A stretch of DNA of 64,000 nucleotides from Ostreococcus lucimarinus (GCA_000092065.1 CP000583.1), one strand, 5' to 3'. Positions 1-47,862 are shown, counted from the first letter of the stretch. The notes: generated by a model not told the origin, from the sequence alone. A program made the numbers and translations.

Positions 1-3000
1 TCGGTTGTCGCTAAACGGATATTTCAGATCTGGTAAATTTATCGCGTATGCCCAGCCTTCCGAATCGGTGTTTTCACCGACGTGCACTTCCCACTGGCCG
101 TCCCACTTGAAATCTGCAGGCAGCAGTCTTGTAGTGAACTCGTCGATTGAGTTCGTGCTGTTAGCTCCTTGACCGTTTGACCACGCTTTGCGTTCGGTGG
201 GAATCAAATGTTTTGACGAAAAACCAGCGAGGGGTATTCTGCGCTGATTCTCGAAAACTTCTTCGTAGATGCGTTTTGGTCGTTTCTTCGTCGACGCACG
301 ACCTGGTTTGTCATCGGGATGCATTCCCGCCGGACAAATACAAACTTCAATGTCATTTGACGTAGTGTTTATGAACGTGGCCATCGGTTTGAACGTGCAA
401 ACGCTCGGACCAGAGGATTTTGCGATGCACCGGGAAGACTTTCCATCAATAATTTGTGCCGCATTCCACACGCGAGCGTCAATCGATTTCCATGGACCGT
501 GAGGTGCAAAAGCTATGCAAACTTCAGAATCACCTTGATTCGAATCATCATTGCTCGCATGCTCACGCTTGCTGTCTAATTCTACAAACTCGACTCGCAC
601 CTTCACTTCGAGCGAACCGTCGTCGTCCACGAGCGGAACTTTAATGACGCCTTCACCAATGTGAGAACGCTCTCCCGACACCGTCAGATTGCTGAAGAAA
701 GACGCTAAAGTCATAGATTTTGTGGCGACACCATTCTCTGAGGATTCGATGTTGTGATCATCAGCAATGACCAATGTCACTAACACATCTTTCGCGTACT
801 CTCGCCAGTGCGTCTTTGATGCGCGCGTGACGCGCGGAATGATTTGAAATTCTTCATTCCAATTGATGCGTGAATTTTGTGAATTCGACGTGATAGCGCG
901 AGTTGTCACCTTGGTAGAGCCAAGACCGTCTGGAAACTCGAATATCATGCTCGCAACGATTTGCGACATTTCATCGTCAGTAGGGACATCGGCGGAAATC
1001 AGATGAATGTTTGCGGACCATTTCGCTCGCACCGGCATCTTTTCACTATTCTGCGATGATGTCAAAGGCGACGACGTGTCGTCTATCGGCAACGCGTATG
1101 ATTCAACATGTCGATTTGCTGTTCGAATCTCGCGTGATTCTCCAGGCTTGAGACAGACAGCCTCCGACGAGCCAACCCGCAAATACACGTCTTGATTCAC
1201 AAGGTGATTGTCGTAACGAATAGAGTCTTCATCGGCTGCCCGAAGTTCTGACACACCACTGGCGACCATAGTTGTCTGGTCTTGCCACTCACTCCAACGC
1301 AACATCGATGCTACGAATCTCTGCGAAACTGTCATGCAAAGAGGCGTGACGGTCTTTACTTGCACCGCCGTTCCTGCTGGCGCGGATTCATCGCCTGTAT
1401 CGCTGTACGAGAATTTCAAATAAGAATTCGTCGCATCAATGACGGGTTCCCAAACGTTGCGAGAACTGTTATAAGAGGAAACTGCTACGTTGAACATGGT
1501 GTTTCCATCCATACGCGTAGATGTACCGTTAACAACGAACGCAGTGTCTGACAAAGTGGCGCAGATGAGCGGGTATGAAAACGCCTCTCGCTCGAGTAGT
1601 ACAAGACTCACTCGCGGCATTGAAATCTTGAGAGAAACGTTCGGATCTTTGCCTTTTGACTTGTTCGCCCTGGCTCGAACGTAATCTAAAACAGATTGCC
1701 GCGGACGGAACTGTCGTGGAGCGATTGCTTTGTCTAGCTTCGAGAAATGAAATAACCCCCACCGCGGAAGCTGATCGAGAGGTGCATCCGGATCCGAACT
1801 CCACAACTGACAGTGCGAACTATGCGCGCTCCAGAGCGCGTCTTGAACGAATATCGCGTCATGCGCCAACTGAGTTGGGTCAGTACATATCCCCTTTCTC
1901 GAAACTTCAATAGCCAAGTCTTGACGTAAGCACGCGCAAGTGGTCAGTTGCGGTGGGTTTTTAGTGTCATTTGTTACGACGTCGCCACAGGAAACGTAAC
2001 CTTGCGGATTAATTGGACGCCACACGGCGTGCGTTCCGCTATCGCCTTGGCGTATGGACCCAACCAATACGAATCCGATCGGCGAAGCGATAATGTCGCT
2101 ATCTTCTGCCACTGCGAGCACACCTGCAGTCGGCGGTTCTGGCCCAGCGATGAGACAGTCGCCGAGCGATACGTATCCTTGCGGCGGTCGGGGGCGCCAA
2201 ATCGACGCCTGGCGACTTCCTTCCGGTTTTTCGTCTGACCATAAAATTTTGAAGTCATACGTCGTCACTGTTTGTAGCATATCTGTACTGTCCATCGAAA
2301 TATTATCTTCTAAAATCTGCTCGGCGTCTGCGATGAGTGGAAACGGTTCGGGTAGCAAGGGCGACGACAAGTCCGCCGCCGTCATGGGATCGAAACCGTC
2401 TGCAAATGCCTGAAAAGTTCGTGGTCCGTTTTTAACTTGTCTTAGATACGCGGATGACGTCTTGTGCGAAATGCACGCACTGTAGTACGCCTCGTTGACA
2501 ACCTCAGCGCGCATGCATCGCATCACATCGAGAGGTGGTGGCTCTTCGTCGGAGGTCACAACGCATCCGAGCGAACAGTACCCGTCCGGAGGAATTGGGC
2601 GCCAAACCACCGACTTTTGCGTTTCACCTTCAAACGCACACATGCGGTGAAACTCTACCGGAGCTTTCGTCAAACCATCAGCGTCTGTGATGACTACGAC
2701 TGGTCGCGTGGGCGGCGTTTCGTCGAGAGTCACGCAGTCGCCTAAGAGCGTAAATCCGGGCGGCGGAACAGGACGCCAGAAAAATGCACCACCTTCTCCT
2801 CCACCTACGCGTACGAAAGTTGAGCATGAGACAGTTTGGTTATACAAACCAGTTGACTGAAGCGTTGCCGTGAACCCTTTGGAGAGCGAAGTAAGTCGCT
2901 CGATAGACTGTGCGTCGAGGACAAAATCAGCGTCTGTGGCTCGCATCATCATTTCCATATCGTCCGCCGTCGCCTGCATGCGTCCGTCTATGTCGATCGG

Positions 3001-6000
3001 TCTTAGCACGATACTGGAGTCGAACATGTTTCCTTTTGAGCTCCATTCACTCACCGCGACCTGGAACTGCGTGAACGCAAACGCGGCATCTTGCTTGCTC
3101 TCGGCGGAGGTATATTGAAATTCTGCGTCGGTGCGCATGCGCAACACATAATCCGCTGCTCCGCTTGAGGTATCTAAGAAAATAAGCTCAACTCCAGGCA
3201 TCGACGCCTTGACGTTGTAATCGAACGAAGAAGTTCCCGCGGTAGCGAGGGAGTTCTCACTTCCGCGCCGCGACTTGGTACGATTTTCGTGTACAATGAC
3301 GACACCATCCACCTCTTCCGCGCTCAATTGAGAATCCGCCTCCAACTGCACGAAGTCACTCAGCTCGGAGCCGATCGGGATGATGATTCGCACATTCGTC
3401 AGCTTGAGGTGCCTCGCCGCAGCAATATATATCAACGGCGTGTTTGAAACGTGGAAGACGAGCTCGCGCCCATTGCCATTCAACTCCACTTCTTTGGCTC
3501 CCTCGGGTGCGTTGCAAAGGATGCGCGTCGACGAGCTCAAGTCGAAGTCTTCCTCGAGCGTCAAGGACGCCCGTGTTCCGAAATTCAAGTCTTGCCTCAA
3601 GCGAGCGTTCACAAGTCCTGATTCAGATTCGTCTTCTGATGTATTCGAGAAGAAGTTGTAGATTGCCAAGCCGAATTGCGGATCGTACATCATTCTGCAA
3701 TCTTGGAAAAAGACGTCGCAGTCGTAAGACGTTGACGATTGCTTTGCGTCGACGCGAAACAAAGTCTTGGTAGAAGTCGAGCCATGACTCGACCCAAACA
3801 CTTGTTGGGCTCTCGTCGGAATCCCGACTCTTAAATCATTCAGCGCTAAGTCCGGGCAGATCACTGAAACAGACATCTCGCCGTCTTTGTCCTTCCTGTA
3901 GCCGACGTGCATATTGTCAATTTGAAACGCCGCGAGGGGTTTATTTCGTTTCGGTTTGGCCGAAGCAAATGTCACCATTCGCATTTTATTCACGTTCATC
4001 GACATCAGCATGTATGGTGCGCCGAACTTATCGTTTAAATTGCCCGACTCGACGGAAACAATTTCAGCAATTTGGTATAAAGGCTGCGGGACGGGGACAA
4101 CTTCTGCAAAATTTTCCACGGAAAGTGCTGTGAGGACCCGATATTCAAAATCGGACATTTCGACTTTCGTTTCGTTCAAAAAATCAACGACAATCTCGTA
4201 GCTCGGCGATCGACTTTTCGGGTCCCATTTCGGGCTACGAACATAGACATCGAGCGCCATGTCGCGCTCCGGAATCATGGACGTCGTCTTTTTAAATTTG
4301 TCCCACACACAAGCCGAGCAACGAAAAAATGAAACGTTCGTTGAATCCAAGAGCACGGCTCCCACATCTAAATGCGACTTACCTCCTTCCCATTTTAGTT
4401 TATTGTTAACCCTTATGCACTCGGCATCCATAGAAAACGCTTGATCGGAGGTGCTGCTTCGTGGAAAGATGAGTTCAGGCCTCTCCATTTCGACGGCGTA
4501 AATCATCGTGAAAGGCCTCGGGTCGCCTCGCCGCAACAGCTCTGCATTTCTCTCCGACTCTGGAAGTGCACTTACAGGGAGTGGTGGTGGTGTAAACATA
4601 GACGTATATCCCATCAGTTTCTGGATGAATGCATACATGACAATCATCTTGACATCATGGAATTTGACGCGAACGTCGTATTCGTATCCTGGGAAGTTTG
4701 ACGCAAGATGGTTGTACATGAAGACATCAATCTGCGTGCGACTGGTATTTGATGCATCAGATGAATTCAAGTCGATGAATTGTCGATACGCATTGTCTTT
4801 CGGCGCAGTCTGATCACCCACGCGAAGGTTTCCGAGCGACATAGAAACTTCTTGCACGGCGGCTTTCGAGTTCATCTCCAACTGCAAATCATCCATGCAG
4901 CAATCAAACAGAGGTTGAAGACTCGACGCTTCTTCTTCTTTTTCGAGATATGCCATGATGACGGTGGAATGAAAATGAAGTAACATTTGGAAACTGATTC
5001 GATCCGAATCCTCGTCGATGAGGCCGCCGAAGGACGCTACTTTTGTAATTGCCTCAGTGTCTGTCGATGAAAACGCCGCCAAGATGACCTTGATTTCCTC
5101 TTGCATGCGATACAGTGAACCGATGGTCGGTCTGTGAAGCGCGAAGCTGATATTCTCGGTATCCAAGCACATTGTTGTACTGATGTTGTTGTATTCTGGT
5201 GAACTTTCGCTTAATTCCTTGTATTTGAGTCGAACTTTCACGTCATCGCGCGCGTGCGCACTCATAAGACGCATGGTTTCGGTTGTACCGCAAAGCTTGT
5301 CCACGATATCCATGCTCGATACCTCCATGACAAACTCTCGGCTATGTTCTTTCGTTTGAACGCTGATCAAAGCCGATGTAGAGCTGAGCTCTGCGACAGG
5401 GATTTCCGTGGATTCTGCCAAGTTGCGATCCAACAGCCTCGCCACACCACCATTTTCTAAACCATCACACTTCGCTCCGGGAATACCCATTGGCTGGCCA
5501 GAAAGATGCACGGACACGCTTCCTAGCTCCATTGTGAGCACAGAGTCTACGACATCTTCCTCGTCGAAGTCCCGATTAAGATTTTCAGAAGTTTCTTCCT
5601 CGACAATAGCTTTCGTAGATGATTGTACCGCTCTCGTGGCCACAGCGACTTCATTCATATCCTGAAGCCATCGCTGCCACTTTGAATGCTCTTGTTCGTC
5701 AGCAAAACGGAATAGCCAAGTATTGTTCGTATCACGCGCGCGTGATTTCGGCGTTTTCGAATCGTGGATCGCCAAAATTAAATTCTGCTTTTCTCCGTCT
5801 TCCTCGTCTTCCAAAACGGTTACTCTAACGCTGTAGCCGATGCGAACGAAATCAATGTAACCCGCCGCATCGGGTTTTTCTAAAATGTACAAGTACGGAC
5901 CTTGAATACACAACCAGCGACTGTGGTAACCGCTCGCGCCACCAACTAGACCCACTTTCTTCGCAGAGGCGGCACCGCTGATGAGCGCATCTGACCAAGG

Positions 6001-8469
6001 TTTCGCATCAATTGCGGCGGTGCTGCCGGCATCCTCAGATAATGCCATGGAACTTTGCTTTGCGGACGATGTCATCTGCATGGTCGCGTATACCCGTGCC
6101 ATTTTCGACGGCGACATGTACATCTGAAAAGCACTTAAAGATATTTGCACTTTTGAACGAGGTCCAACTTCAGGTGTCCATCCGGCGCCTTGCATCGCAA
6201 AACGCATTTTGGCGTCACACGGGGCAAGGAGTGTTTCGCAGACTTGATCGAGCGACGTCGACACCGAGTTCCCCCAATCGAAATCCGACGGCGCGAGAAA
6301 CACGGCCGTATCCCTACTGGCGACGGCAAACGTCTGGTACACTGGCGCGCCAGTTTTGCGATCAAAACTCACCGATGGATCAAGTGGATCGGCCACCATG
6401 GTAAAATGACCGAAATCCACCAACGTTTGGAACGCCACTCGACCTCGTCGGCGAACTGGAATTGTCACCTTTGGCGCGTGAATGTCGAACGTCATGGCAA
6501 CTTTATTCAACGCTTCAGTGGTTGATTCTTTTGCTTCTTCAAGCTTAATCATCGCCTCATCCACTTGGAGCGCAAAATTTGTTTGGACTAATTCTTTTGA
6601 GCTAAAAAAGTTGCGCAGTTGGTCGACGGTTTGTCCATCAAAGACAATGTACACCGGAGAAAGCTTGACATCCACGTTGGCATCGAGATCGTGTTCGAGT
6701 GGGTAGGCGTTGTGCTTGACTTCGAGCGCGTGTTTACGCAACGACGCTCCTACTCCGCTCGACAATATTCGATCATTCGTAGTCTCGCACGTCCAACTGT
6801 TAATGGTGAAATACGTGTTTGATTGATCCTTGTACGTCTTCGTCAAGATCTTCGCGCCAATCATACTTGAATTCAAAACGAGACGCTCTTTATTGTGATC
6901 ATCGTGATCGGTGAGCTCCATGGAAAGCTTTTTCATCGATCCTCTGAATTCCATGCCGAGTTCCTTTGGGTCGAAATCCTCTTCCTCCACGCCGCCGCGC
7001 ATGAGCTCTTCCAGCTTGCTCCAGTCGTCGTTTGACATTTCCAGCGACTTAGCCGTCAACTCCGTCGACGATTGCCACATCCACGAAAAATAGCCCGATT
7101 TTTCCGATTCTTCTTCTTTCAACATAAGAATAACATCGCCTCTAGCTTTTGAGGCGAGAGAAGGCGGTCGTCCGTCGGTGCTCGCGGCTTTCGATTTGCT
7201 ATGAGCGATGCAGCGCCAGGCGAGCGCGACTTCAAAGTCGATGTTGCGCTCTATCTCGTGTACTCGATTGATAAACTCAGCGTTTGATGCGCTACCCTCC
7301 GCTATGTATATGGAAAGATATTCACGCCTTAACGCTCCGGTCTCTTGGATATTGCGCCATTCGAAAGTCCCTAAAACGTTCTTCTTTCTCGCCGAGACGG
7401 CGCACTTGGCGTACGTCCACCACGCGCGCGGTTGAGCTTTGACGCTCACCATCGGGCGAAACTCGGCGTGCGGCAATCGCAAGCGATACTGATTGAAGGC
7501 CTCTAGCAAGCGGACCGTACTGCGGTATTGATTACGACTCAACGCCATGCGCGCGTCTTGAAACTTCAAGTCACACATTTGCCTCGGTTCACCCGCCTCG
7601 GTTTGTTCTTTTCGTCCTTTGCGGTGATAAAACAGTTCCACCGTCACCGGGTACAACATGTAGTTTCGCACATCGCTCGGCGCTTCTCCGACCAACCCTA
7701 CGCCAAATAGTGCCCACCACGCCTCTGTGTCTTCCACTTTCGGCGGCGTCCATCCCGCGTGCGTTTTCCACGGTCGATACACCGCCCCCGAGTCGAGATA
7801 CATTGAAAAGTTTTCCAACGCCACGCGCTTGTGAATGCGTTCCAGCGACCCTCCCGCGACGAACGTCGGCTCCCCAAAATCATCCACCGTGATCGCGCTC
7901 AACTTTCCTATCGTCATTCCGCACGAAAACGTGTGCCCAGGCGTCGTGATTTCATCCTCGTACCGCACGTGTACGTTTTGCACCGTTATTTGTAAATTTC
8001 CCAGCACCGTGTTTAACGTCTTCCAAAACCAACTATCCGATCTCTCCGCCTCCTCCCGCATCGTCTTCGTCATCTTCCCCATCGCCGTCCTCAACCAATC
8101 TCGCTCTCCCTCATCGATTCGTTTCTTCTTCTCCGCCGCGTCTTCCTCCTCGTCTCGCGTCTCGTCCGCCGTCGCCGCCGCCTCCTCCATCGTCACCCTC
8201 GACGCCAGCACGAACACTCGATCGATCTCCACCACCACCGGTTCGCGTCCGAGGTTCATCCACGGCACCTTCAACCGCAGCGACCCGACGCATCCCGCGT
8301 CGACCGTCACCGGCGCGCGCAGCGTCGACAGCGCCGTTTTTTTCAGACGAACGTTTCGCAATTCGACGTCGCCGTTCCACGCGGACACGCGCAGTTTCTC
8401 GCCGTCGATGCCGTCGCAGTACGCGCCGAGCGCCTTATTCAGGGCGTCGGCGAGGTACTGCTCGAACAT
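1..8469 (-). CDS. VPS13: VPS13-like bulk lipid-transfer protein (chorein-N family), partial: the N-terminal ~2800 codons. The ATG is at 8469-8467 on the minus strand. The reading frame appears open to the window edge, so the 3' end lies outside the window.
   Basis: Reverse-complement translation from the ATG at 8469 gives MFEQYLADALNKALGAYCDGIDGEKLRVSAWNGDVELRNVRLKK. This matches the VPS13 chorein-N start (yeast [21 protein letters not shown]...IWSGDV.LKNL.L). The ORF track shows no long stop-bounded ORF in any frame across 1-8469, consistent with one very long open frame leaving the window. The frame contains tandem 'WRP.PP.GY..LGDC' (PxGY) repeats. Local GC is lower (~48%) than in neighbouring genes. 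The translation was done by eye and its continuity is not fully verified. Confidence 0.6.
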   Translation of the reverse strand, partial: MFEQYLADALNKALGAYCDGIDGEKLRVSAWNGDVELRNVRLKKTALSTLRAPVTVDAGCVGSLRLKVPWMNLGREPVVVEIDRVFVLASRVTMEEAAATADETRDEEEDAAEKKKRIDEGERDWLRTAMGKMTKTMREEAERSDSWFWKTLNTVLGNLQITVQNVHVRYEDEITTPGHTFSCGMTIGKLSAITVDDFGEPTFVAGGSLERIHKRVALENFSMYLDSGAVYRPWKTHAGWTPPKVEDTEAWWALFGVGLVGEAPSDVRNYMLYPVTVELFYHRKGRKEQTEAGEPRQMCDLKFQDARMALSRNQYRSTVRLLEAFNQYRLRLPHAEFRPMVSVKAQPRAWWTYAKCAVSARKKNVLGTFEWRNIQETGALRREYLSIYIAEGSASNAEFINRVHEIERNIDFEVALAWRCIAHSKSKAASTDGRPPSLASKARGDVILMLKEEESEKSGYFSWMWQSSTELTAKSLEMSNDDWSKLEELMRGGVEEEDFDPKELGMEFRGSMKKLSMELTDHDDHNKERLVLNSSMIGAKILTKTYKDQSNTYFTINSWTCETTNDRILSSGVGASLRKHALEVKHNAYPLEHDLDANVDVKLSPVYIVFDGQTVDQLRNFFSSKELVQTNFALQVDEAMIKLEEAKESTTEALNKVAMTFDIHAPKVTIPVRRRGRVAFQTLVDFGHFTMVADPLDPSVSFDRKTGAPVYQTFAVASRDTAVFLAPSDFDWGNSVSTSLDQVCETLLAPCDAKMRFAMQGAGWTPEVGPRSKVQISLSAFQMYMSPSKMARVYATMQMTSSAKQSSMALSEDAGSTAAIDAKPWSDALISGAASAKKVGLVGGASGYHSRWLCIQGPYLYILEKPDAAGYIDFVRIGYSVRVTVLEDEEDGEKQNLILAIHDSKTPKSRARDTNNTWLFRFADEQEHSKWQRWLQDMNEVAVATRAVQSSTKAIVEEETSENLNRDFDEEDVVDSVLTMELGSVSVHLSGQPMGIPGAKCDGLENGGVARLLDRNLAESTEIPVAELSSTSALISVQTKEHSREFVMEVSSMDIVDKLCGTTETMRLMSAHARDDVKVRLKYKELSESSPEYNNISTTMCLDTENISFALHRPTIGSLYRMQEEIKVILAAFSSTDTEAITKVASFGGLIDEDSDRISFQMLLHFHSTVIMAYLEKEEEASSLQPLFDCCMDDLQLEMNSKAAVQEVSMSLGNLRVGDQTAPKDNAYRQFIDLNSSDASNTSRTQIDVFMYNHLASNFPGYEYDVRVKFHDVKMIVMYAFIQKLMGYTSMFTPPPLPVSALPESERNAELLRRGDPRPFTMIYAVEMERPELIFPRSSTSDQAFSMDAECIRVNNKLKWEGGKSHLDVGAVLLDSTNVSFFRCSACVWDKFKKTTSMIPERDMALDVYVRSPKWDPKSRSPSYEIVVDFLNETKVEMSDFEYRVLTALSVENFAEVVPVPQPLYQIAEIVSVESGNLNDKFGAPYMLMSMNVNKMRMVTFASAKPKRNKPLAAFQIDNMHVGYRKDKDGEMSVSVICPDLALNDLRVGIPTRAQQVFGSSHGSTSTKTLFRVDAKQSSTSYDCDVFFQDCRMMYDPQFGLAIYNFFSNTSEDESESGLVNARLRQDLNFGTRASLTLEEDFDLSSSTRILCNAPEGAKEVELNGNGRELVFHVSNTPLIYIAAARHLKLTNVRIIIPIGSELSDFVQLEADSQLSAEEVDGVVIVHENRTKSRRGSENSLATAGTSSFDYNVKASMPGVELIFLDTSSGAADYVLRMRTDAEFQYTSAESKQDAAFAFTQFQVAVSEWSSKGNMFDSSIVLRPIDIDGRMQATADDMEMMMRATDADFVLDAQSIERLTSLSKGFTATLQSTGLYNQTVSCSTFVRVGGGEGGAFFWRPVPPPGFTLLGDCVTLDETPPTRPVVVITDADGLTKAPVEFHRMCAFEGETQKSVVWRPIPPDGYCSLGCVVTSDEEPPPLDVMRCMRAEVVNEAYYSACISHKTSSAYLRQVKNGPRTFQAFADGFDPMTAADLSSPLLPEPFPLIADAEQILEDNISMDSTDMLQTVTTYDFKILWSDEKPEGSRQASIWRPRPPQGYVSLGDCLIAGPEPPTAGVLAVAEDSDIIASPIGFVLVGSIRQGDSGTHAVWRPINPQGYVSCGDVVTNDTKNPPQLTTCACLRQDLAIEVSRKGICTDPTQLAHDAIFVQDALWSAHSSHCQLWSSDPDAPLDQLPRWGLFHFSKLDKAIAPRQFRPRQSVLDYVRARANKSKGKDPNVSLKISMPRVSLVLLEREAFSYPLICATLSDTAFVVNGTSTRMDGNTMFNVAVSSYNSSRNVWEPVIDATNSYLKFSYSDTGDESAPAGTAVQVKTVTPLCMTVSQRFVASMLRWSEWQDQTTMVASGVSELRAADEDSIRYDNHLVNQDVYLRVGSSEAVCLKPGESREIRTANRHVESYALPIDDTSSPLTSSQNSEKMPVRAKWSANIHLISADVPTDDEMSQIVASMIFEFPDGLGSTKVTTRAITSNSQNSRINWNEEFQIIPRVTRASKTHWREYAKDVLVTLVIADDHNIESSENGVATKSMTLASFFSNLTVSGERSHIGEGVIKVPLVDDDGSLEVKVRVEFVELDSKREHASNDDSNQGDSEVCIAFAPHGPWKSIDARVWNAAQIIDGKSSRCIAKSSGPSVCTFKPMATFINTTSNDIEVCICPAGMHPDDKPGRASTKKRPKRIYEEVFENQRRIPLAGFSSKHLIPTERKAWSNGQGANSTNSIDEFTTRLLPADFKWDGQWEVHVGENTDSEGWAYAINLPDLKYPFSDNR

Positions 8470-8657
8470 CGTCGCCCGAGCCGTCGCGCGCGCGCGACGG
8501 TCTGAGACGCCAGGGTGGATTAATGCGGGCAGACGGTTACAGCGGTCGGTCGGTCGGTCGGACAGCGCTGGACGGGCGCGACGCGACGCGACGCGACGCG
8601 GACGCGCGATGGAGCGCGGCGGCGGCGACGAATGCGATGTTATCTCACCGTGCTATC

Positions 8658-9889: not shown

Positions 9890-10327
9890 CTTCGTCCGCT
9901 ATCGATCGCGCGATTACCACGCGTGGTCCATCGTCAGTCGTCGTCGTCGCGCGCGTCGTCGTCGCGCGCGTCGTCGTTCGCCCGCGCACCTGACGCGTCG
10001 GCACGACCAACATGTCCCCGACGTCCACCCCCGGGAACATCGCCTCCGCCTCCATCTTGTGCCGCTTCGGGCACGCTGCGTCGCGCGATCGCGCCGCGTT
10101 CGTCGTCGTCAGTCCGCGTCTCTCTCCCGTCTCTCTCGCGCGCGTCGTTCGCGTCGTTCGCGCGACCGTTTCGAGAATTCCACGCCGCGCGTTCGCGGCG
10201 CCTCGCGCGTCTTCCTCGCGCGTCGCGCGCGCACCGTGCGCGGAGTACTCCATGCCCCACACCGTCTTCGTCGTCTCGATCGCCGGCGGCGTCGCGCCCA
10301 TGTCTCGCGCCGTCGTCGCGTCGCGCG

Positions 10328-26172: not shown

Positions 26173-27841
26173 TTAAATTACAGTGATCGACCCGCCGTTG
26201 AGTGCGATCTGCTCGAGGAAAATGAGCGAAACGGCGACTGCGTACGTTCCGCTCACCGCGCCCAGAGGTTCGTAGTCGTAGTCCACGTAGTCGCTCGCTC
26301 GCGCCTCACCGCCGGCGTCTTCGTATTCGTCGTAGTCTGCCGCCCCGTTTGTGGACGTGTTCTTGCCGAGGCTTGTGAAATGCGTCGCTCGAGCGGTGTC
26401 CACGCCTCGAGGACCTTCGACAGCGGTGTCGTTCGACAACGGACGGATCCATCGCTTGACGCGCTCGGTTAACGTCATGTTGGCGTCGTCTCCACCACCC
26501 TGCGCGGAAACCTCGCCGTTGGCATCGGCCTCGCGAGACGCGATATCACTCTCGACGATGGAATTGACTTCGTTCACGATGCTCGTGACCGCATCGATGA
26601 TTTTCGTCGCGTCGTCGATGGCGTTGGCCACGGCGATGCCTTTTGAAATACTTCCGGCGATGGCCACCGCGGGATCGATTGCCGATGCGAAATCGATAGC
26701 GGCGTCGTAGCCGTGAAATACGATTTGGTTTGAAATCGTGTTCTCCGCCGCCGCTTCGTAGGTCGTGATCCCGACGCCTGGCGTCGCGACGCCGACCAAA
26801 GCCACCGTGATGTCCAAACTGATACGAATTTGGGGATCGACGACGTATTCTTCGAGTAAAGCGATGAATCGGTCGCGAATAGCGAGTGGTAGCGTCGCGG
26901 GAAAAGACTCGAACCAATTCGTCGTGAAAAGCTCAACGTCGTCGTACGTGACGTCCACGATTTCAGATAGATGACGTCTTTCGATCGATTCCGTCGACGT
27001 ACCGTTTCTTCGCTGAAGTGCGCGTTTTGCCGCAGCGCGCAAGTCGACTGGATGTTGAACTTGCGTTATGACCTCCGCACCTTCCGGGAGTTTTCGCGCC
27101 CTGGCTTCAGAAGCGCTTAATAATCGCCGTCGGCGTCTATTGGGCGCGCCTTCGATGGATTCCGCCGCATACTCGTACTCGTACTCGTATTCAGTGTCCT
27201 TGGGTTGTAATGCCTGTTGGATCGCCATCGCGGCTAATCCACTGACCTCGAAGCCAAATCCATAGAATTGTTCGACTAGTTCGCACACACCGTCAGTCGT
27301 CGAAATCGCATCGTCGCATCGCATACTCACCGCCGAACGCGCCGCCCGCAAAGAATTCGCTGAACACGGTGTTATCGAGCGTCGAAGATCCATCGATGAC
27401 CCACTCTTGCGCGAGTACGGTGTCCGTGGTGACACCAGAGCTGAAATCCTGAATCACCCCCGACGCGAAGCTCGCGAACACGTTGGTGAATTTGGTGAAA
27501 CCCAGATCAGTCGTCAAGATCATTTGCAGAAATTCCTCCACCATTCCACCGTTATTGTTCACCGAGTTGCGAAGAATGAGCAGTGCGACGCGTAAGAAGG
27601 TCGTTGGCTGAATGATAGCGTTAAGAATCACTCCTGCGGGACCGACAGGGGCGGTCAAGAGTTTCCTCGATGAAGCGGCTGTCCCTGAGGCGACGGATGA
27701 AGCGGCTGTCCCCGAGGCGACGGTGTCGCCAACCGCGGTGTCGCCAACCGCGGAAGCGCGAGGAATATAAATCGTCGTCGTCGCAATAACGAGCGCACAC
27801 GCGCACGCCACGGCCAACACGAATTTTAGAGTACGATTCAT
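26173..27841 (-). CDS. Secreted hypothetical protein, predicted in two exons. Exon 1 is 27841-27331 and exon 2 is 27275-26173 on the minus strand. A 55-nt GT-AG intron (27330-27276) joins two overlapping track ORFs.
   Basis: Signal-peptide-like start: MNRTLKFVLAVACACALVIATTTIYIPRASA, from ATG 27841 (an alternative ATG is at 27856). ORF 27293-27949 ends shortly after a GGTGAGTATGCG donor. ORF 26173-27435 is offset by one base. Splicing GTGAGT...CTAG joins ...FFAGGAFG to VEQFYGFGFEVSG... in frame. There is an internal EYEYEY repeat. No domain recognised. Confidence 0.45.
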
Positions 27842-28015
27842 GTTATTTCTTCGCATGCGTGCGCCGAGATTCGCGCGCGCGCGTGAAAGTGTCCGCGAGC
27901 ACGCGCTTCGCCTCGATGTCGTCGCCGTTCTCGATTGTGCCAAAGACATGTTGTTACAGCGTTTTCCTTCGTATCAAATCATTCAAAGTCTTGCTCACGC
28001 GTGTTCCCGCGCTCA

Positions 28016-39926: not shown

Positions 39927-40567
39927 CTTTCGCGCCTGTCGCTCGCGCTCGCGCGCGCGCGCGCTCGCGCGCGTCCGGTTCGACGGGCAAAGACGCGTTC
40001 GCGTCGCTCGCGCGGTCGCGGTGCGCGCGTCGCGCCGCGCGCGTCGCGGTGTGCGCGGGCGCGCGCGCGGTCGACGCGGGACGCACACCCGCGTGCGGTG
40101 CCAGTGAGAAAACGAGGCGCATTCGCGCGCGCTTTGGTGGCCGCAGAGCGCGCCTCGCGACGCGCGGGACGCTCGAGGGCGCGCGCGCGCGAAGAAAAAA
40201 ATCCCATCATGGTGCGACCGCGCGCCGCGGACGACGCGCGACGTCGCGAAGCGCCGCGCGAGACGCGTCGACTCGAAGACGCGCGCGGACTGACGACGAC
40301 GCGATCGACGCGCGAAATCGCGGTGTAGGTGGTGCTGTCGGCGGCGATCGTCACCAAGGGCGGTAAAGGTGCGTGGAGAAGATAACGATGCGTCGAACGG
40401 GACGCGCGGGGAGGCGCGGATGCGGTCGCGACGCGCGCGAGGGTGGGATTTCGAGACGAGGGCGGAACGGTCGAGATCAAAGCGAAAGAAGCTCGGTGAC
40501 GGAAGACTGACGGTGGTGACGCGCGTGCGATGATGATGTAGCGCTGGTGTCGAGGCAGTACGTGCAG

Positions 40568-42250
40568 ATGACGCGCGTGCGCGTCGAAGGGTTGCTCGCG
40601 GCGTTTCCGAAACTCGTCGGAAGCGGGAAGCAACACACGTACGTGGAGACGGAAAACGTGCGGTACGTGTATCAGCCGCTCGAGTGCGGGACGATGTACT
40701 TGCTGCTGGTGACGACGAAGGGCAGTAATATCTTAGAGGATTTGGACGTGTTGCGGTTGCTGGCGAAGACGCTGCCGGAGTACACGCAAGGGCAGGTGGA
40801 TGAAGAGGGTGTGTCGTTCGCGGCGTTCGATTTGATCTTCGCGTTTGACGAGATCATCTCGCTCGGGTACAAGGAAAACGTAACGATGGCGCAGGTGAAG
40901 ACTTTCACAGAGATGAACTCGCACGAAGAAAAGCTGCACAAGATGATGATCCAGAGTAAGATCAACGACACGAAGGATGTCATGCGTCGCAAGGCTACGG
41001 AGATCGACAAGGTCAAGCACGAGATGCAGCAATCAGCGATGCAACGAAGCGGAGGTTACGGCGGCCCGAGCCGCGGATTCGGGGCGCGAGATTCGTTCGA
41101 TGCGCGCGGTGGTTTTGGTGGGCAAAGTGGCGGTTTCGGTGGCCAGCAGGGAGGTGGTTTTGGTGGGCAAGGCGGGTTCGGCGACGGCTCGAGCGGCAGC
41201 TTCGACGACGGACGCAACGACGAGTTTGGATACCTCGGCCGCGGCGGCGGCGGAAGTGGCTCGTTCGGTGACGACCACCCGACGAGTGGCGGGTTCAGAA
41301 CCAGGTACAGCGATGACGTGGGCGGATACGGTCAACAGAGCTCCCCGGGTATGCCCCAAAAGTCTCTCGCCGGGCCGAAGAAGGGCATGCAACTCGGTGG
41401 CAAGCCGAAGACGAACCAGTTCCTGGAGAGTTTGCGTGCCGAAGGCGAATCTGTGGACGCAGATTTCGGCATCGAACCTTCTCGACCTGAAATGCCCGTT
41501 GCGGCGGCGCCTGCGGCGGCGCCGACGGAGAGCGTGAGTCTGGTTGTGGAAGAAAAACTCAACGTCACCTTGAACCGCAACGGCGGATTGGAGCAAATGG
41601 ATTTGCAAGGCAACATGCTTCTCGAAGTGCGCAACGAAGACGACGCTCTCATTCGTGTCGTGACCAAGGCGGGTGAGAACGCTGGGTTTCAGTTCAAGAC
41701 GCACCCGAACATTGACAAGGCTCTGCACGCAAACGAGAAAATTTTAGGCTTGAAGGACCCCAACCGTCCGTTTCCGTGCGGCTCGGCGCTCGGCGTGTTG
41801 AAGTGGCGATTCTCCACTAAGGATGAATCTGCGCTGCCTCTCAGCATCAACTGCTGGCCGACGATCAACGGCGGAGAAACCGCGGTGAGCATCGAATACG
41901 AGGCGTCGGATGCGATGGATTTACAAAACGTCGTCATTTCCATCCCGTGCCCGCCGTGCCGAGACCCGCCCGCGGTGAACTCGTGCGACGGCGAATTCCG
42001 ATTCGACGCGCGCAACGGCGTCATGGAGTGGAATATCGAGCTCATCGACGACAGCAATCGAAACGGAAGCATGGAATTCGTCATTCCTGTGGCCGACACA
42101 GAAGCGTTCTTCCCCATCGACGTCCACTTTTCTTCCGCGAAGACGTTCTGCGATATCGAAGTCGCGAGCATCTCTCGCACGACGGATGGCGCCCCCGTGA
42201 CGTTTGGCGGTAGAACGATGATGCTCGTGGACTCGTACCAAGTCGTATAG
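40568..42250 (+). CDS. ARCN1: Coatomer subunit delta (delta-COP), with a longin-like N-terminus and a mu-homology C-terminus.
   Basis: [46 protein letters not shown]...[28 protein letters not shown] aligns to the delta-COP N-terminus ([26 protein letters not shown]...). The track start at 40547 is GTG. The first in-frame ATG is at 40568. About 14 N-terminal residues found in orthologues are not accounted for, so an upstream micro-exon is possible. AATAAA at 42271. Confidence 0.75.
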   Translation: [560 protein letters not shown]

Positions 42251-45197: not shown

Positions 45198-47315
45198 TTA
45201 CGGCGGAGAGATGAACGCGTGACGCATCGGCTTCACCGCGCCCAGAGGAGTTTCCGGTGGTAAATGAGAAGCGTCGATGTTCCCACTCGCCACGGCATCG
45301 GCCATAATGGCGATAGATTTGATTCCACGCGGTGCTGTTCCTTGACGCTTCGGTGTTTGCACGGTGGCGCCGTACTTGACGTTTCCTTCGGAGTGCATGA
45401 AAGCGGGCGCAGGAGCCGCCTTGACGACTGGAGCCGGTGGTACCATCTCCGCGATAGGTGCCTCGGTCGGCATGACGATTGAAGCGTTCGCAGCGTACGC
45501 TGCTTTTTCTAAATTACGCTGAGCTGTCTTCACATACTGAGTTCGCCAAATCTCTTCGTCACACGTCGCCTCGGCGGCAGCATAAGCAGCGAGACTCGTC
45601 TCGGCGCGGAGTAAAGCCTTGTTGGTCACCAAATGAGCAGCCATTTCACTGCGAAGTAATTCTTCAATCACCGAGCGTGGTGCTGATTGGTCGCACATCA
45701 AATCGAAACGCGACGTCAGCGACGACAGACTTTGTTGCATCCCGATGAGTTTATGCGCCAAAATCGCGCTCCCTTGAATGACGCGATCGTTTTCCGTGCC
45801 GTGCGACGTACCCTCGCCCTTCATCTTTGCCATTTGAATTTGCAGCTGATGCATCGCCGTCTCAGAGTTGCTCAACAGTTGCTCGAGTCGGCCGACTAAC
45901 ACTTTGTATTCCGCTGCCTCTCTCTCAGCCTTGTGCTGACAAAGTTGTGCCGCCGCAGCCGTCATGTGCAGTTCGCACGATCTTGTGATGGCACCGTGAA
46001 GCTCGTCTCGTAGGGAACCATCCGGAATCTGATCAATACTCTCGCGAGTTGCTTGCGCGATTTGTTCCTGCGCGAGCGCCGTGTCCTCATTAATTGCCCC
46101 GAGATCGAGCTCGACTTGACGAATCCCTCGAATTGGTCGAGAAGGAGACATCACTGGCGCTTGAGGCTTGGTCGTCATTCGCGAAGGCTTCACCGGCGAC
46201 ATGGGAATACCACCAACCGAAGTGAGGGCGTCGAGGAGAACACCCATGCCGGCGTGCTGGTCGTCGTCCGACGTGTGCTCGGGCGTCATTTCTCCGTGTA
46301 CACTCGACAGCGACTGACGGGCCTTCTTCCGGCTTCGATCTTTCGCGGCAAGCGTGGACTTGGGAATCGCCGTCGACATCTGCGACGGTAGCACGAAAGC
46401 TGGGACCGTCCAGTGGTTGGACAACCCCTTGCGGTTGCTTCCGCACCCGCATTCAAGCTTGTCCGCGGTGAGAAGAACGTCGTCGCAGTTGCCCTTGGTA
46501 CCGATGATCTGCACCTGGGCGAGCAGTGGGCAAAGCTCGAGCGCTTGTAGGTTGAATCGAGTGACAGTCCACAAATAGTTATCGTCGTTGCCATACCTGT
46601 TCCTGTCGAGGTTTGTTGAGTACTCGTTGCCTTCCGCGTCGGACAACTGATGACGCCTAAGTTCTTCTGGCACTCTGTGCGTACCCGAGTTCAGCGCCAC
46701 AACCTTGGTACGGCGAGTGTTGACGCTGAGTAATTGCAGAATGTTACGAGCACCATCCGTACGTTGGCTTTCAGCCATATCCAAAGCGCGGAGCGTCTGC
46801 AGAAAAGCGCTCGTCACCGATGGACACGCCTCTGTCATCTTTGGCAACTGCTTTTTAACAATCGCCGGAATAGCGTGCTCGTAGTGTTCCCAATGAAAAT
46901 TGATACGATATAAAAGTTGGTTGTTCGTCGGACGTTGCCTCGGCGTCGTCGCGTCCCTCGCCGCGTTGGGGGATTTCATCGTCGCCGGGCTCAACTTTTT
47001 ACCGCCGCTCGCGTGCGAGCCAGCGTTGGACGATTTCCCTACGCTTCTTTGCTGCGTCGACGCCGACGCCTTGAATCCCAAACCCGACTCAATCTTCATA
47101 CGTTTCGCCCCCGTCGCGCCGTTAACGTAACGCCCACCGTCATTCTCCGCATTCGAAGACCTCGACCCGCTCCTCGACATCGTCGACGTCGACGCCTCTG
47201 CCCGCGCTTCCTCCTCCTGCGTCCTCGGCCGCGTTCTCGCCACAAAATCTCCACCCTGAAGTCGGTTCATCGTCGGTTCATACTGCATTTGCCAAAAACC
47301 GTCGTCAGTCGCCAT
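45198..47315 (-). CDS. Hypothetical protein (705 aa) with no confidently recognised domain.
   Basis: ATG at 47315. Non-repetitive middle: ...YRINFHWEHYEHAIPAIVKKQLPKMTEACPSVTSAFLQTLRALDMAESQ...LECGCGSNRKGLSNHWTVPAF... The C-terminal half is coiled-coil-like. Confidence 0.4.
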   Translation of the reverse strand: MATDDGFWQMQYEPTMNRLQGGDFVARTRPRTQEEEARAEASTSTMSRSGSRSSNAENDGGRYVNGATGAKRMKIESGLGFKASASTQQRSVGKSSNAGSHASGGKKLSPATMKSPNAARDATTPRQRPTNNQLLYRINFHWEHYEHAIPAIVKKQLPKMTEACPSVTSAFLQTLRALDMAESQRTDGARNILQLLSVNTRRTKVVALNSGTHRVPEELRRHQLSDAEGNEYSTNLDRNRYGNDDNYLWTVTRFNLQALELCPLLAQVQIIGTKGNCDDVLLTADKLECGCGSNRKGLSNHWTVPAFVLPSQMSTAIPKSTLAAKDRSRKKARQSLSSVHGEMTPEHTSDDDQHAGMGVLLDALTSVGGIPMSPVKPSRMTTKPQAPVMSPSRPIRGIRQVELDLGAINEDTALAQEQIAQATRESIDQIPDGSLRDELHGAITRSCELHMTAAAAQLCQHKAEREAAEYKVLVGRLEQLLSNSETAMHQLQIQMAKMKGEGTSHGTENDRVIQGSAILAHKLIGMQQSLSSLTSRFDLMCDQSAPRSVIEELLRSEMAAHLVTNKALLRAETSLAAYAAAEATCDEEIWRTQYVKTAQRNLEKAAYAANASIVMPTEAPIAEMVPPAPVVKAAPAPAFMHSEGNVKYGATVQTPKRQGTAPRGIKSIAIMADAVASGNIDASHLPPETPLGAVKPMRHAFISPP

Positions 47316-47862
47316 CTACACGCGACGATGATCGCCGTCGCCGTCGTCCGGCGGTTACGCCGCCGGCGTCGATCGCGGATCGTCATCACGCCCATCTTCT
47401 TCCCCACCACCGCCCACATTCCCTTCCGTTTCGCGCGCGTTTACGAGATCACACCACCACGCACCTTCACCGGCGGTTTCCTCGCGCGAATCTCCCGCAT
47501 CACGCGCTCGCAGGGCGTCGTTCGCTCGATCGGAGTCGTCGTTTCGACACGTCGGTCGTCGTCGCGCGATGATGCCGTCGCCGTCGCGCGGTTCCGGACG
47601 CGTTTCGCGCGCGCGGGTGCGGCGCGTTCGTCTCACGACTTTCTGCTCGATTCGCGCGCGGGCGAGCGCGTTGGCGTCGTCGAGGACGTCGGGCGCGTCG
47701 TCGATTGCCGCCGACCGCCAATGCCGGAACGAAAAATTTGAATTTTGGCGGCAAAAGTGCAGAAGTGGTCAATTCGGCGGCGATCGATCGAGCGGTGCGA
47801 CGAAGGGCGAATGACGCACGCGCGACGAATGATTGACGTAGAATACAAAACGGTGAAGATGA

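Follow-up and report, generated by a model that had tools for sequence, protein, structure and literature searches.

The spliceosomal introns of Ostreococcus lucimarinus, a marine green picoalga with a compact genome, are well described. EST-confirmed introns, those in the outlier half of chromosome 2 excepted, have the donor GTGCGTG, and 87% of them carry the branch core ACTGAC, often extended to GACTGACG, with a branch-to-AG distance that peaks at 20-35 nt (PMC2483917). Mean intron length in this species is ~187 nt, and chromosome 2 has many introns of 40-65 nt (PMC2367439). In the related literature on Micromonas RCC299, the short introner elements of the IE-C class, ~67 nt in length, likewise contain GACTGACG (Verhelst et al. 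2013, PMC3879977). That the O. lucimarinus genome carries short spliceosomal introns, as a first-pass annotation of the DNA studied here had concluded, is correct, and was already well established for the species.

The present analysis concerns a stretch of 64,000 nt from O. lucimarinus (CP000583.1), hereafter the window. Two ORFs on its minus strand overlap by 143 nt in different frames, and we conclude, with very little room for doubt, that one protein-coding gene spans both of them and that positions 27330..27276 form a U2-type GT-AG spliceosomal intron, at which the U2 spliceosome presumably acts. Neighboring ORFs match proteins of strain CCE9901: a CBS-domain protein is identical to XP_001417077.1 and a cysteinyl-tRNA synthetase to XP_001416778.1, while a PTC7-type phosphatase falls into the same 90% cluster as XP_001416779.1 and, if started at its second ATG, would have the 428 aa of that entry. 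The synthetase is a single 746-aa ORF in the window and in other contigs; in metagenome contig L001 (3605..5654) it was called as two overlapping ORFs (299 + 399 aa), probably the result of an assembly indel in L001. The window probably belongs to chromosome 3 and not to chromosome 2, because an offset of 295 between the protein accessions of adjacent opposite-strand genes fits the 589 genes predicted on chromosome 3. The coordinates of the locus are collected in Table 1.

Table 1. Features of the split gene in the window, with the loci of related contigs that carry an intron at the upstream site; a slash marks a splice site.
Feature	Position	Strand	Remarks
ORF 1	27293..27949	minus	218 aa; frame differs from ORF 2
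ORF 2	26173..27435	minus	420 aa; frame differs from ORF 1
Exon 1, coding part	27331..27949	minus	619 nt; phase 1, with 1 nt of the split codon
ATGs of exon 1	27949; alternatives 27856 (M32), 27841 (M37)	minus	
Candidate signal-peptide-like segment (MNRTLKFVLAVACACALVIATTTIYIPRASA)	27749..27841	minus	if translation starts at M37
Two in-frame tandem repeats, exon 1	27669..27753	minus	27-nt and 15-nt units
Intron	27276..27330	minus	55 nt, GT-AG, phase 1, 54.5% GC
5' splice site GTGAGT (G/GTGAGTA)	27325..27330	minus	preserved in 62-nt and 58-nt variants
Branch-point motif GACTGACG	27291..27298	minus	identical to extended O. lucimarinus branch consensus (PMC2483917)
3' splice site CTAG/	27276..27279 (AG = 27277..27276)	minus	first AG past the branch motif
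Exon 2, coding part	26173..27275	minus	1,103 nt; stop codon 26175..26173 included
ABO95369.1 / XP_001417076.1 / A4RV48	27293..27856	minus	187 aa; ORF 1 from second ATG
ABO95368.1 / XP_001417075.1 / A4RV47	26173..27228	minus	351 aa; ORF 2 from an internal Met
93-nt intron loci (L008-L010, L029-L033)	~3,850-3,950 in L008		
49-nt intron loci (L011-L013, L039)	~3,900-3,950 in L011		

Removal of 27330..27276 joins the ORF segments 27949..27331 and 27275..26173 into a product of 573 aa, with the junction ...SEFFAGGAFG/VEQFYGFGFE..., also written FFAGGAFG/VEQFYGFGFEVSG; on the minus strand the locus reads ...GCGTTCGGCG/GTGAGTATGCGATGCGACGATGCGATTTCGACGACTGACGGTGTGTGCGAACTAG/TCGAACAATTC..., and translation straight through the unspliced intron gives GGEYAMRRCDFDD. 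The first-pass annotation had described both ORFs with the right coordinates, had placed the donor GG/GTGAGTATGCG at 27330 and the acceptor CTAG/TCGAACAATTC at 27276, with 55 nt in between, and had predicted the restored frame (...FFAGGAFG-VEQFYGFGFEVSG...) exactly as we obtained it. Restoration of the frame by itself is weak evidence, not beyond chance, because 84 GT..AG pairs spaced 20-300 nt apart could formally join ORF 1 to ORF 2. What singles out the pair 27330..27276 is its GTRAGT donor and GACTGACG branch motif, together with the external evidence described below. The motif lies 15 nt before the acceptor, so that 17 nt is the distance of its branch A to the intron's 3' end, and the stop codon of unspliced ORF 1, TGA at 27295..27293, is situated inside it. 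According to the proposed mechanism, the pre-mRNA would be spliced at G/GTGAGT ... GACTGACG ... CTAG/, so as to join the 619-nt first coding exon to the 1,103-nt second exon; the product would be ~537-573 aa long, depending on which of the three ATGs starts translation, and without splicing translation would end at the TGA within the branch motif. A self-splicing (group I or II) intron or another structured RNA was considered and rejected: 55 nt is far too short, the intron region has no Rfam match at E <= 1, and the intron is no better folded than its shuffles (z = +1.33).

A search for orthologues with the spliced product recovered many single continuous ORFs of 500-660 aa. The continuity of orthologues across the junction, which the first-pass annotation had put forward as a check, was borne out by about 18 of them (P0002-P0011, P0014-P0021), which align there without a gap; P0004, whose junction is FFAGGAFGVEQFFGFGFE, is identical to the spliced product over FFAGGAFGVEQF. 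Members of the aligned clusters are, among others, O. tauri XP_022838631.1 (518 aa) and Micromonas pusilla CCMP1545 XP_003054860.1 (659 aa), and the conserved C-terminal half, encoded by exon 2, aligns in all homologues. In addition, a complete 557-aa ORF derived from an MMETSP transcript (P0134), which belongs to the 90% cluster of ORF 2, begins with MSLAQSRTATT, the same start as the exon 1 ORF (ATG 27949), and reads the junction as ...FFAGGAFGVEQFYGFGFEVSG..., also ...SEFFAGGAFGVEQFYGFGFEVSG..., that is, GGAFGVEQFYG. If metagenome contig L003 is spliced conceptually, its product and P0134 are the same but for 2 residues. P0134 is the translated ORF of a strain near-identical to, but distinct from, CCE9901, and it indicates indirectly that the intron is absent from the mature mRNA.

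Metagenome contigs extend this picture to wild relatives. The identical 55 nt occur in 14 independent contigs from different studies, and two variants occupy the same site: a 62-nt intron in three contigs (L026-L028) with 98% protein identity, which represents a 7-nt duplication of GACTGAC plus a few substitutions, and a 58-nt intron in one contig with 93% protein identity, which is set apart by three indels (1, 7 and 3 nt). GTGAGT, GACTGACG and TAG are preserved in both, the terminal TAG/ thus being common to all three variants of this lineage, which we call clade A. In L026-L028 (~3,080-3,140 in L026) the duplication doubles the branch motif (GACTGACGACTGACG) and creates two candidate branch points. 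When the window is compared with L040, of the 93% lineage, the 181 nt that precede the donor differ at 0/0/15 sites of codon position 1/2/3, and the 302 nt that follow the acceptor at 8/1/44. Each exon has thus been under purifying selection in its own frame, up to the splice sites. The intron behaves like non-coding DNA, since frame-breaking indels occur within it alone. The intron has no demonstrated function, and the protein needs no intron at this place because the closest intron-less relatives do without one.

These observations bear on three other readings of the locus. Indel errors classically reveal themselves by ORFs that overlap in different frames, and a 1-nt frameshift in the sequencing or assembly of the reference, with no intron at all, would account for the two seen here; an indel of this kind, merging the two ORFs on resequencing, was also what the first-pass annotation had named as speaking against its model. 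This reading is refuted by the 14 independent contigs with their identical 55 nt. Furthermore, a 1-nt correction leaves ~18 extra residues without a counterpart in any orthologue, whereas excision of exactly 55 nt yields a gap-free alignment, and the extra residues are missing from the transcript ORF too, making an error in the reference extremely improbable. Programmed ribosomal frameshifting, or another form of recoding on an unspliced mRNA, could exploit the 143 nt over which the frames overlap, but its product would retain residues from 27330-27276 or the overlap that neither the orthologues nor the transcript ORF possess. The 7-, 1- and 3-nt indels that relatives carry in this interval would break the register, no stable structure (z = +1.3) or Rfam element is found there, and we consider the probability of recoding negligible.

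The remaining alternative, two separate genes or a pseudogene broken by a 55-nt insertion, has the databases on its side, since GenBank and UniProt hold exactly these two models (A4RV48 and A4RV47). Against it, each orthologue free of the insertion is one continuous ORF over both parts, the single transcript ORF P0134 covers both, purifying selection acts on the two halves up to the splice sites, and the start of A4RV47 is an internal Met within a block conserved in the homologues; we therefore hold two genes or a pseudogene to be very improbable. In the spliced single-gene model, the last 13 residues of A4RV48, which reads through the donor, are encoded by the intron, its stop codon is the TGA of the branch motif, and A4RV47 lacks the first ~220 residues of the protein (186 if the start is M37), the signal-like N-terminus among them. 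The two-gene model of the locus in GenBank and UniProt is wrong, and the CCE9901 entries XP_001417076.1/A4RV48 and XP_001417075.1/A4RV47 should give way to a single gene model that contains one intron. Whichever of the three ATGs is taken as the start, the exact spliced product is absent from a collection of 15 billion proteins, and prokaryote-style gene calling on the metagenome contigs splits the gene in the same way as the reference annotation. Short introns with non-consensus donors can evidently escape annotation in a very compact genome, and in marine metagenomes prokaryote-style gene calling routinely splits such genes. The intron itself is ordinary; what is new here is only that it was missed and that the gene was split.

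With respect to the protein, the first-pass annotation had ORF 27293-27949 begin with a signal peptide. This was not quite the case: the strongest Kyte-Doolittle peak of the protein is at roughly residues 42-60, and the signal-like segment follows the third Met (M37, 27841). Because most orthologues begin near M37 with a similar N-terminal hydrophobic segment, M37 is a plausible start, and because that segment is conserved, entry of the product into the secretory pathway appears plausible as well. Just after the segment, the two tandem repeats of exon 1 encode VASGTAASS and AVGDT; wild contigs differ in the number of copies, always in frame, with products of 573, 570, 569, 568 and 557 aa. No Pfam family matched the spliced protein at E <= 1. 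AlphaFold2, run with a 21-sequence alignment, gave a prediction too poor for a fold search because its mean pLDDT was 36.8. A profile run against 1.84 billion cluster representatives returned 72 matches only, mostly fragments, and all named members of the family that were found are Mamiellophyceae. It appears to be a small protein family of no known function, restricted to that group.

The branch motif is not peculiar to this gene, for GACTGACG occurs 11 times in the window as compared with 4.1 expected, a count reached in 0 of 100 shuffles. Upstream of the plus-strand ORF 40547..42250 there are two putative 5' introns, 40212..40328 (117 nt, ATG/GTGCGA...) and 40369..40541 (173 nt, GTGCGTG...), each with GACTGACG, and the ATG, a 40-nt exon and the main ORF are in frame. 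On the minus strand, a putative intron at 47464..47283 has a GTGCGTG donor and an acceptor in frame with ORF 45198..47315. Further GACTGACG sites in putative introns are at 9932(-), 10107(-), 51096(+) and 54787(+). It is plausible from these patterns that other genes of the window with seemingly missing N-termini have 5' introns, because the motif is enriched and several of its sites lie just upstream of long ORFs, beside GTGCG donors. A strict screen of the window for ACTGAC plus an ORF returned few introns; such a screen misses those that follow very short first exons. One candidate, 2480..1920, was rejected as part of a continuous giant ORF. Positions 1..8652 of the minus strand form an uninterrupted open frame of >2,880 codons that runs off the start of the window (first Met at 8469) and has an N-terminal Pfam match to VPS13_N (E = 6e-50). 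The GC content is 0.48-0.53 in approximately the first 8 kb of the window, as against ~0.6 elsewhere.

Eighty further loci from metagenomes were compared at the junction. In 63 intron-less loci the codons for SEF and EQF are separated by an uninterrupted 33 nt. All recovered loci at 38-46% identity are intron-less, including the cluster that contains Micromonas pusilla CCMP1545, as are the O. tauri group and several Ostreococcus-like lineages. Two other Ostreococcus lineages have introns at a different place: that of P0012, a sister lineage, carries a 93-nt intron, GGAG/GTGCGT...GACTGACC...CACAG/GCGCC, and the more distant one of P0013 a 49-nt intron, GGCG/GTGCGT...TCCAG/GTGCC, which contains no ACTGAC motif. 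Both fall within the codon for the second Gly of AGG, also in phase 1, and the O. lucimarinus site follows exactly 12 nt downstream. The nearest relatives of these upstream-intron loci (L014-L016, L035-L036 and L080) have no intron. In the gene tree, O. lucimarinus is sister to the pair formed by P0012 (with intron) and P0002 (without) at 84% bootstrap, and P0013 (with intron) is sister, with 100% support, to an intron-less group that includes another MMETSP transcript.

A simple shift of the boundaries of the upstream intron was considered as a source of the O. lucimarinus position. Such intron sliding was ruled out, because in O. lucimarinus the 12 nt that separate the sites (GC GCG TTC GGC G) agree with the ancestral exon sequence of the outgroups: the O. 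tauri group has a near-identical form of GGCGGCGCGTTCGGC, and the distant locus L043, from the same clade as Micromonas pusilla, has it unchanged. Since sliding is excluded, these 12 nt must have been the scene of two insertions or more, and clade A would have gained its 55-62-nt intron between ...GGC G and TC GAA.... The sequences agree with separate origins in that no resemblance among the three classes (clade A, 93 nt and 49 nt) extends past the splice signals; alignment of clade A with the 93-nt intron gave z = 0.8 to 2.6 (p = 0.03 for the 55-nt form) and with the 49-nt intron negative z, as compared with z = 8.5 between the 55-nt and 58-nt forms. The upstream intron may itself have arisen twice, or it may be old and have been lost several times. 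Its 5' ends (GTGCGTCG, GTGCGTTG) resemble the starts of their own second exons (GCGCCGTG, GTGCCGTG), a likeness that could reflect a target-site duplication or a cryptic-donor hotspot and to which we give no weight, because the 5' ends also resemble the donor consensus of the genus. Unrelated introns 12 nt apart in relatives suggest repeated intron gain at one spot, and on balance we lean toward seeing in this short stretch of the gene a hotspot at which Ostreococcus lineages acquired introns recently and independently. The pattern of presence, absence and position in closely related wild Ostreococcus offers a small natural case of intron birth where introns are few and the population is huge.

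We asked of the clade-A intron whether it might be one copy of a mobile introner, akin to the short IE-C class of Micromonas, and not a singleton. It is lineage-specific and short (55-62 nt), and it has the GACTGACG that is present in the ~67-nt IE-C elements of RCC299 (PMC3879977). The motif is, however, the ordinary branch motif of the genus as well, and our literature search found no description of introners in Ostreococcus. Moreover, in 710 kb of Mamiellophyceae sequence, made up of 64 kb of the O. lucimarinus genome and related contigs, the intron has no other copy, matches outside the cognate locus being <=13 nt long; for the 55-, 58-, 93- and 49-nt introns together, this sequence contained chance matches of <=17 nt only, the longest in low-complexity, GC-rich sequence. 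An introner origin is unsupported because no further copy was found in the 710 kb, and we consider it unlikely.

How the intron compares with the classes described for this and related genomes may be summarized from the branch motif outward. The first-pass annotation had proposed a comparison with the intron length and donor statistics of the host; the donor and length do not conform to them, and the branch motif is that of the species. Like the canonical introns outside chromosome 2 (Irimia & Roy 2008, PMC2483917), the intron has GT-AG ends and the exact extended motif GACTGACG, and it is the single intron of a gene in an intron-poor, gene-dense region of ~60% GC. It departs from them in its donor, GTGAGTA where the canonical form is GTGCGTG (other putative introns of the window do have GTGCG donors), in its 55 nt as against the mean of ~187 nt (PMC2367439), in a distance of 17 nt between branch A and 3' end, below the canonical peak at 20-35 nt, and in its acceptor, CTAG where the preference is for CGCAG. 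With the short, BOC-type introns that Ostreococcus has in the low-GC, intron-rich outlier half of its chromosome 2 it shares a length in the 40-65 nt class and a donor that fits the reported GTRNGT form. Their branch consensus is weak or absent, whereas the full GACTGACG is present here, and the BOC1 introns of Micromonas are AT-rich (<43% GC; PMC3879977) as compared with 54.5% GC here; with its strong branch motif, this GC content, and a window of ~60% GC that holds few introns, the intron falls outside the BOC short-intron class. It resembles the IE-C elements (Verhelst et al. 2013, PMC3879977) in being short, in its conserved GACTGACG, and in occupying a site that orthologues lack, with differences in presence and absence among related lineages; it differs in that IE-C is a multi-copy family of conserved sequence in a different genus, and the 55-nt intron is single in 710 kb.

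All of these departures from the typical intron are variations within a known kind. The history of the site has a parallel farther afield, since population studies of Daphnia pulex reportedly revealed parallel or recurrent gain of introns at the same or neighboring sites. The Ostreococcus locus differs from such cases in that neither clear direct repeats at the flanks nor other traces of the insertion mechanism were evident, and it resembles recurrent gain in Daphnia pulex in its unrelated introns, situated 12 nt apart and in the same phase in sister lineages, on an intron-less background.
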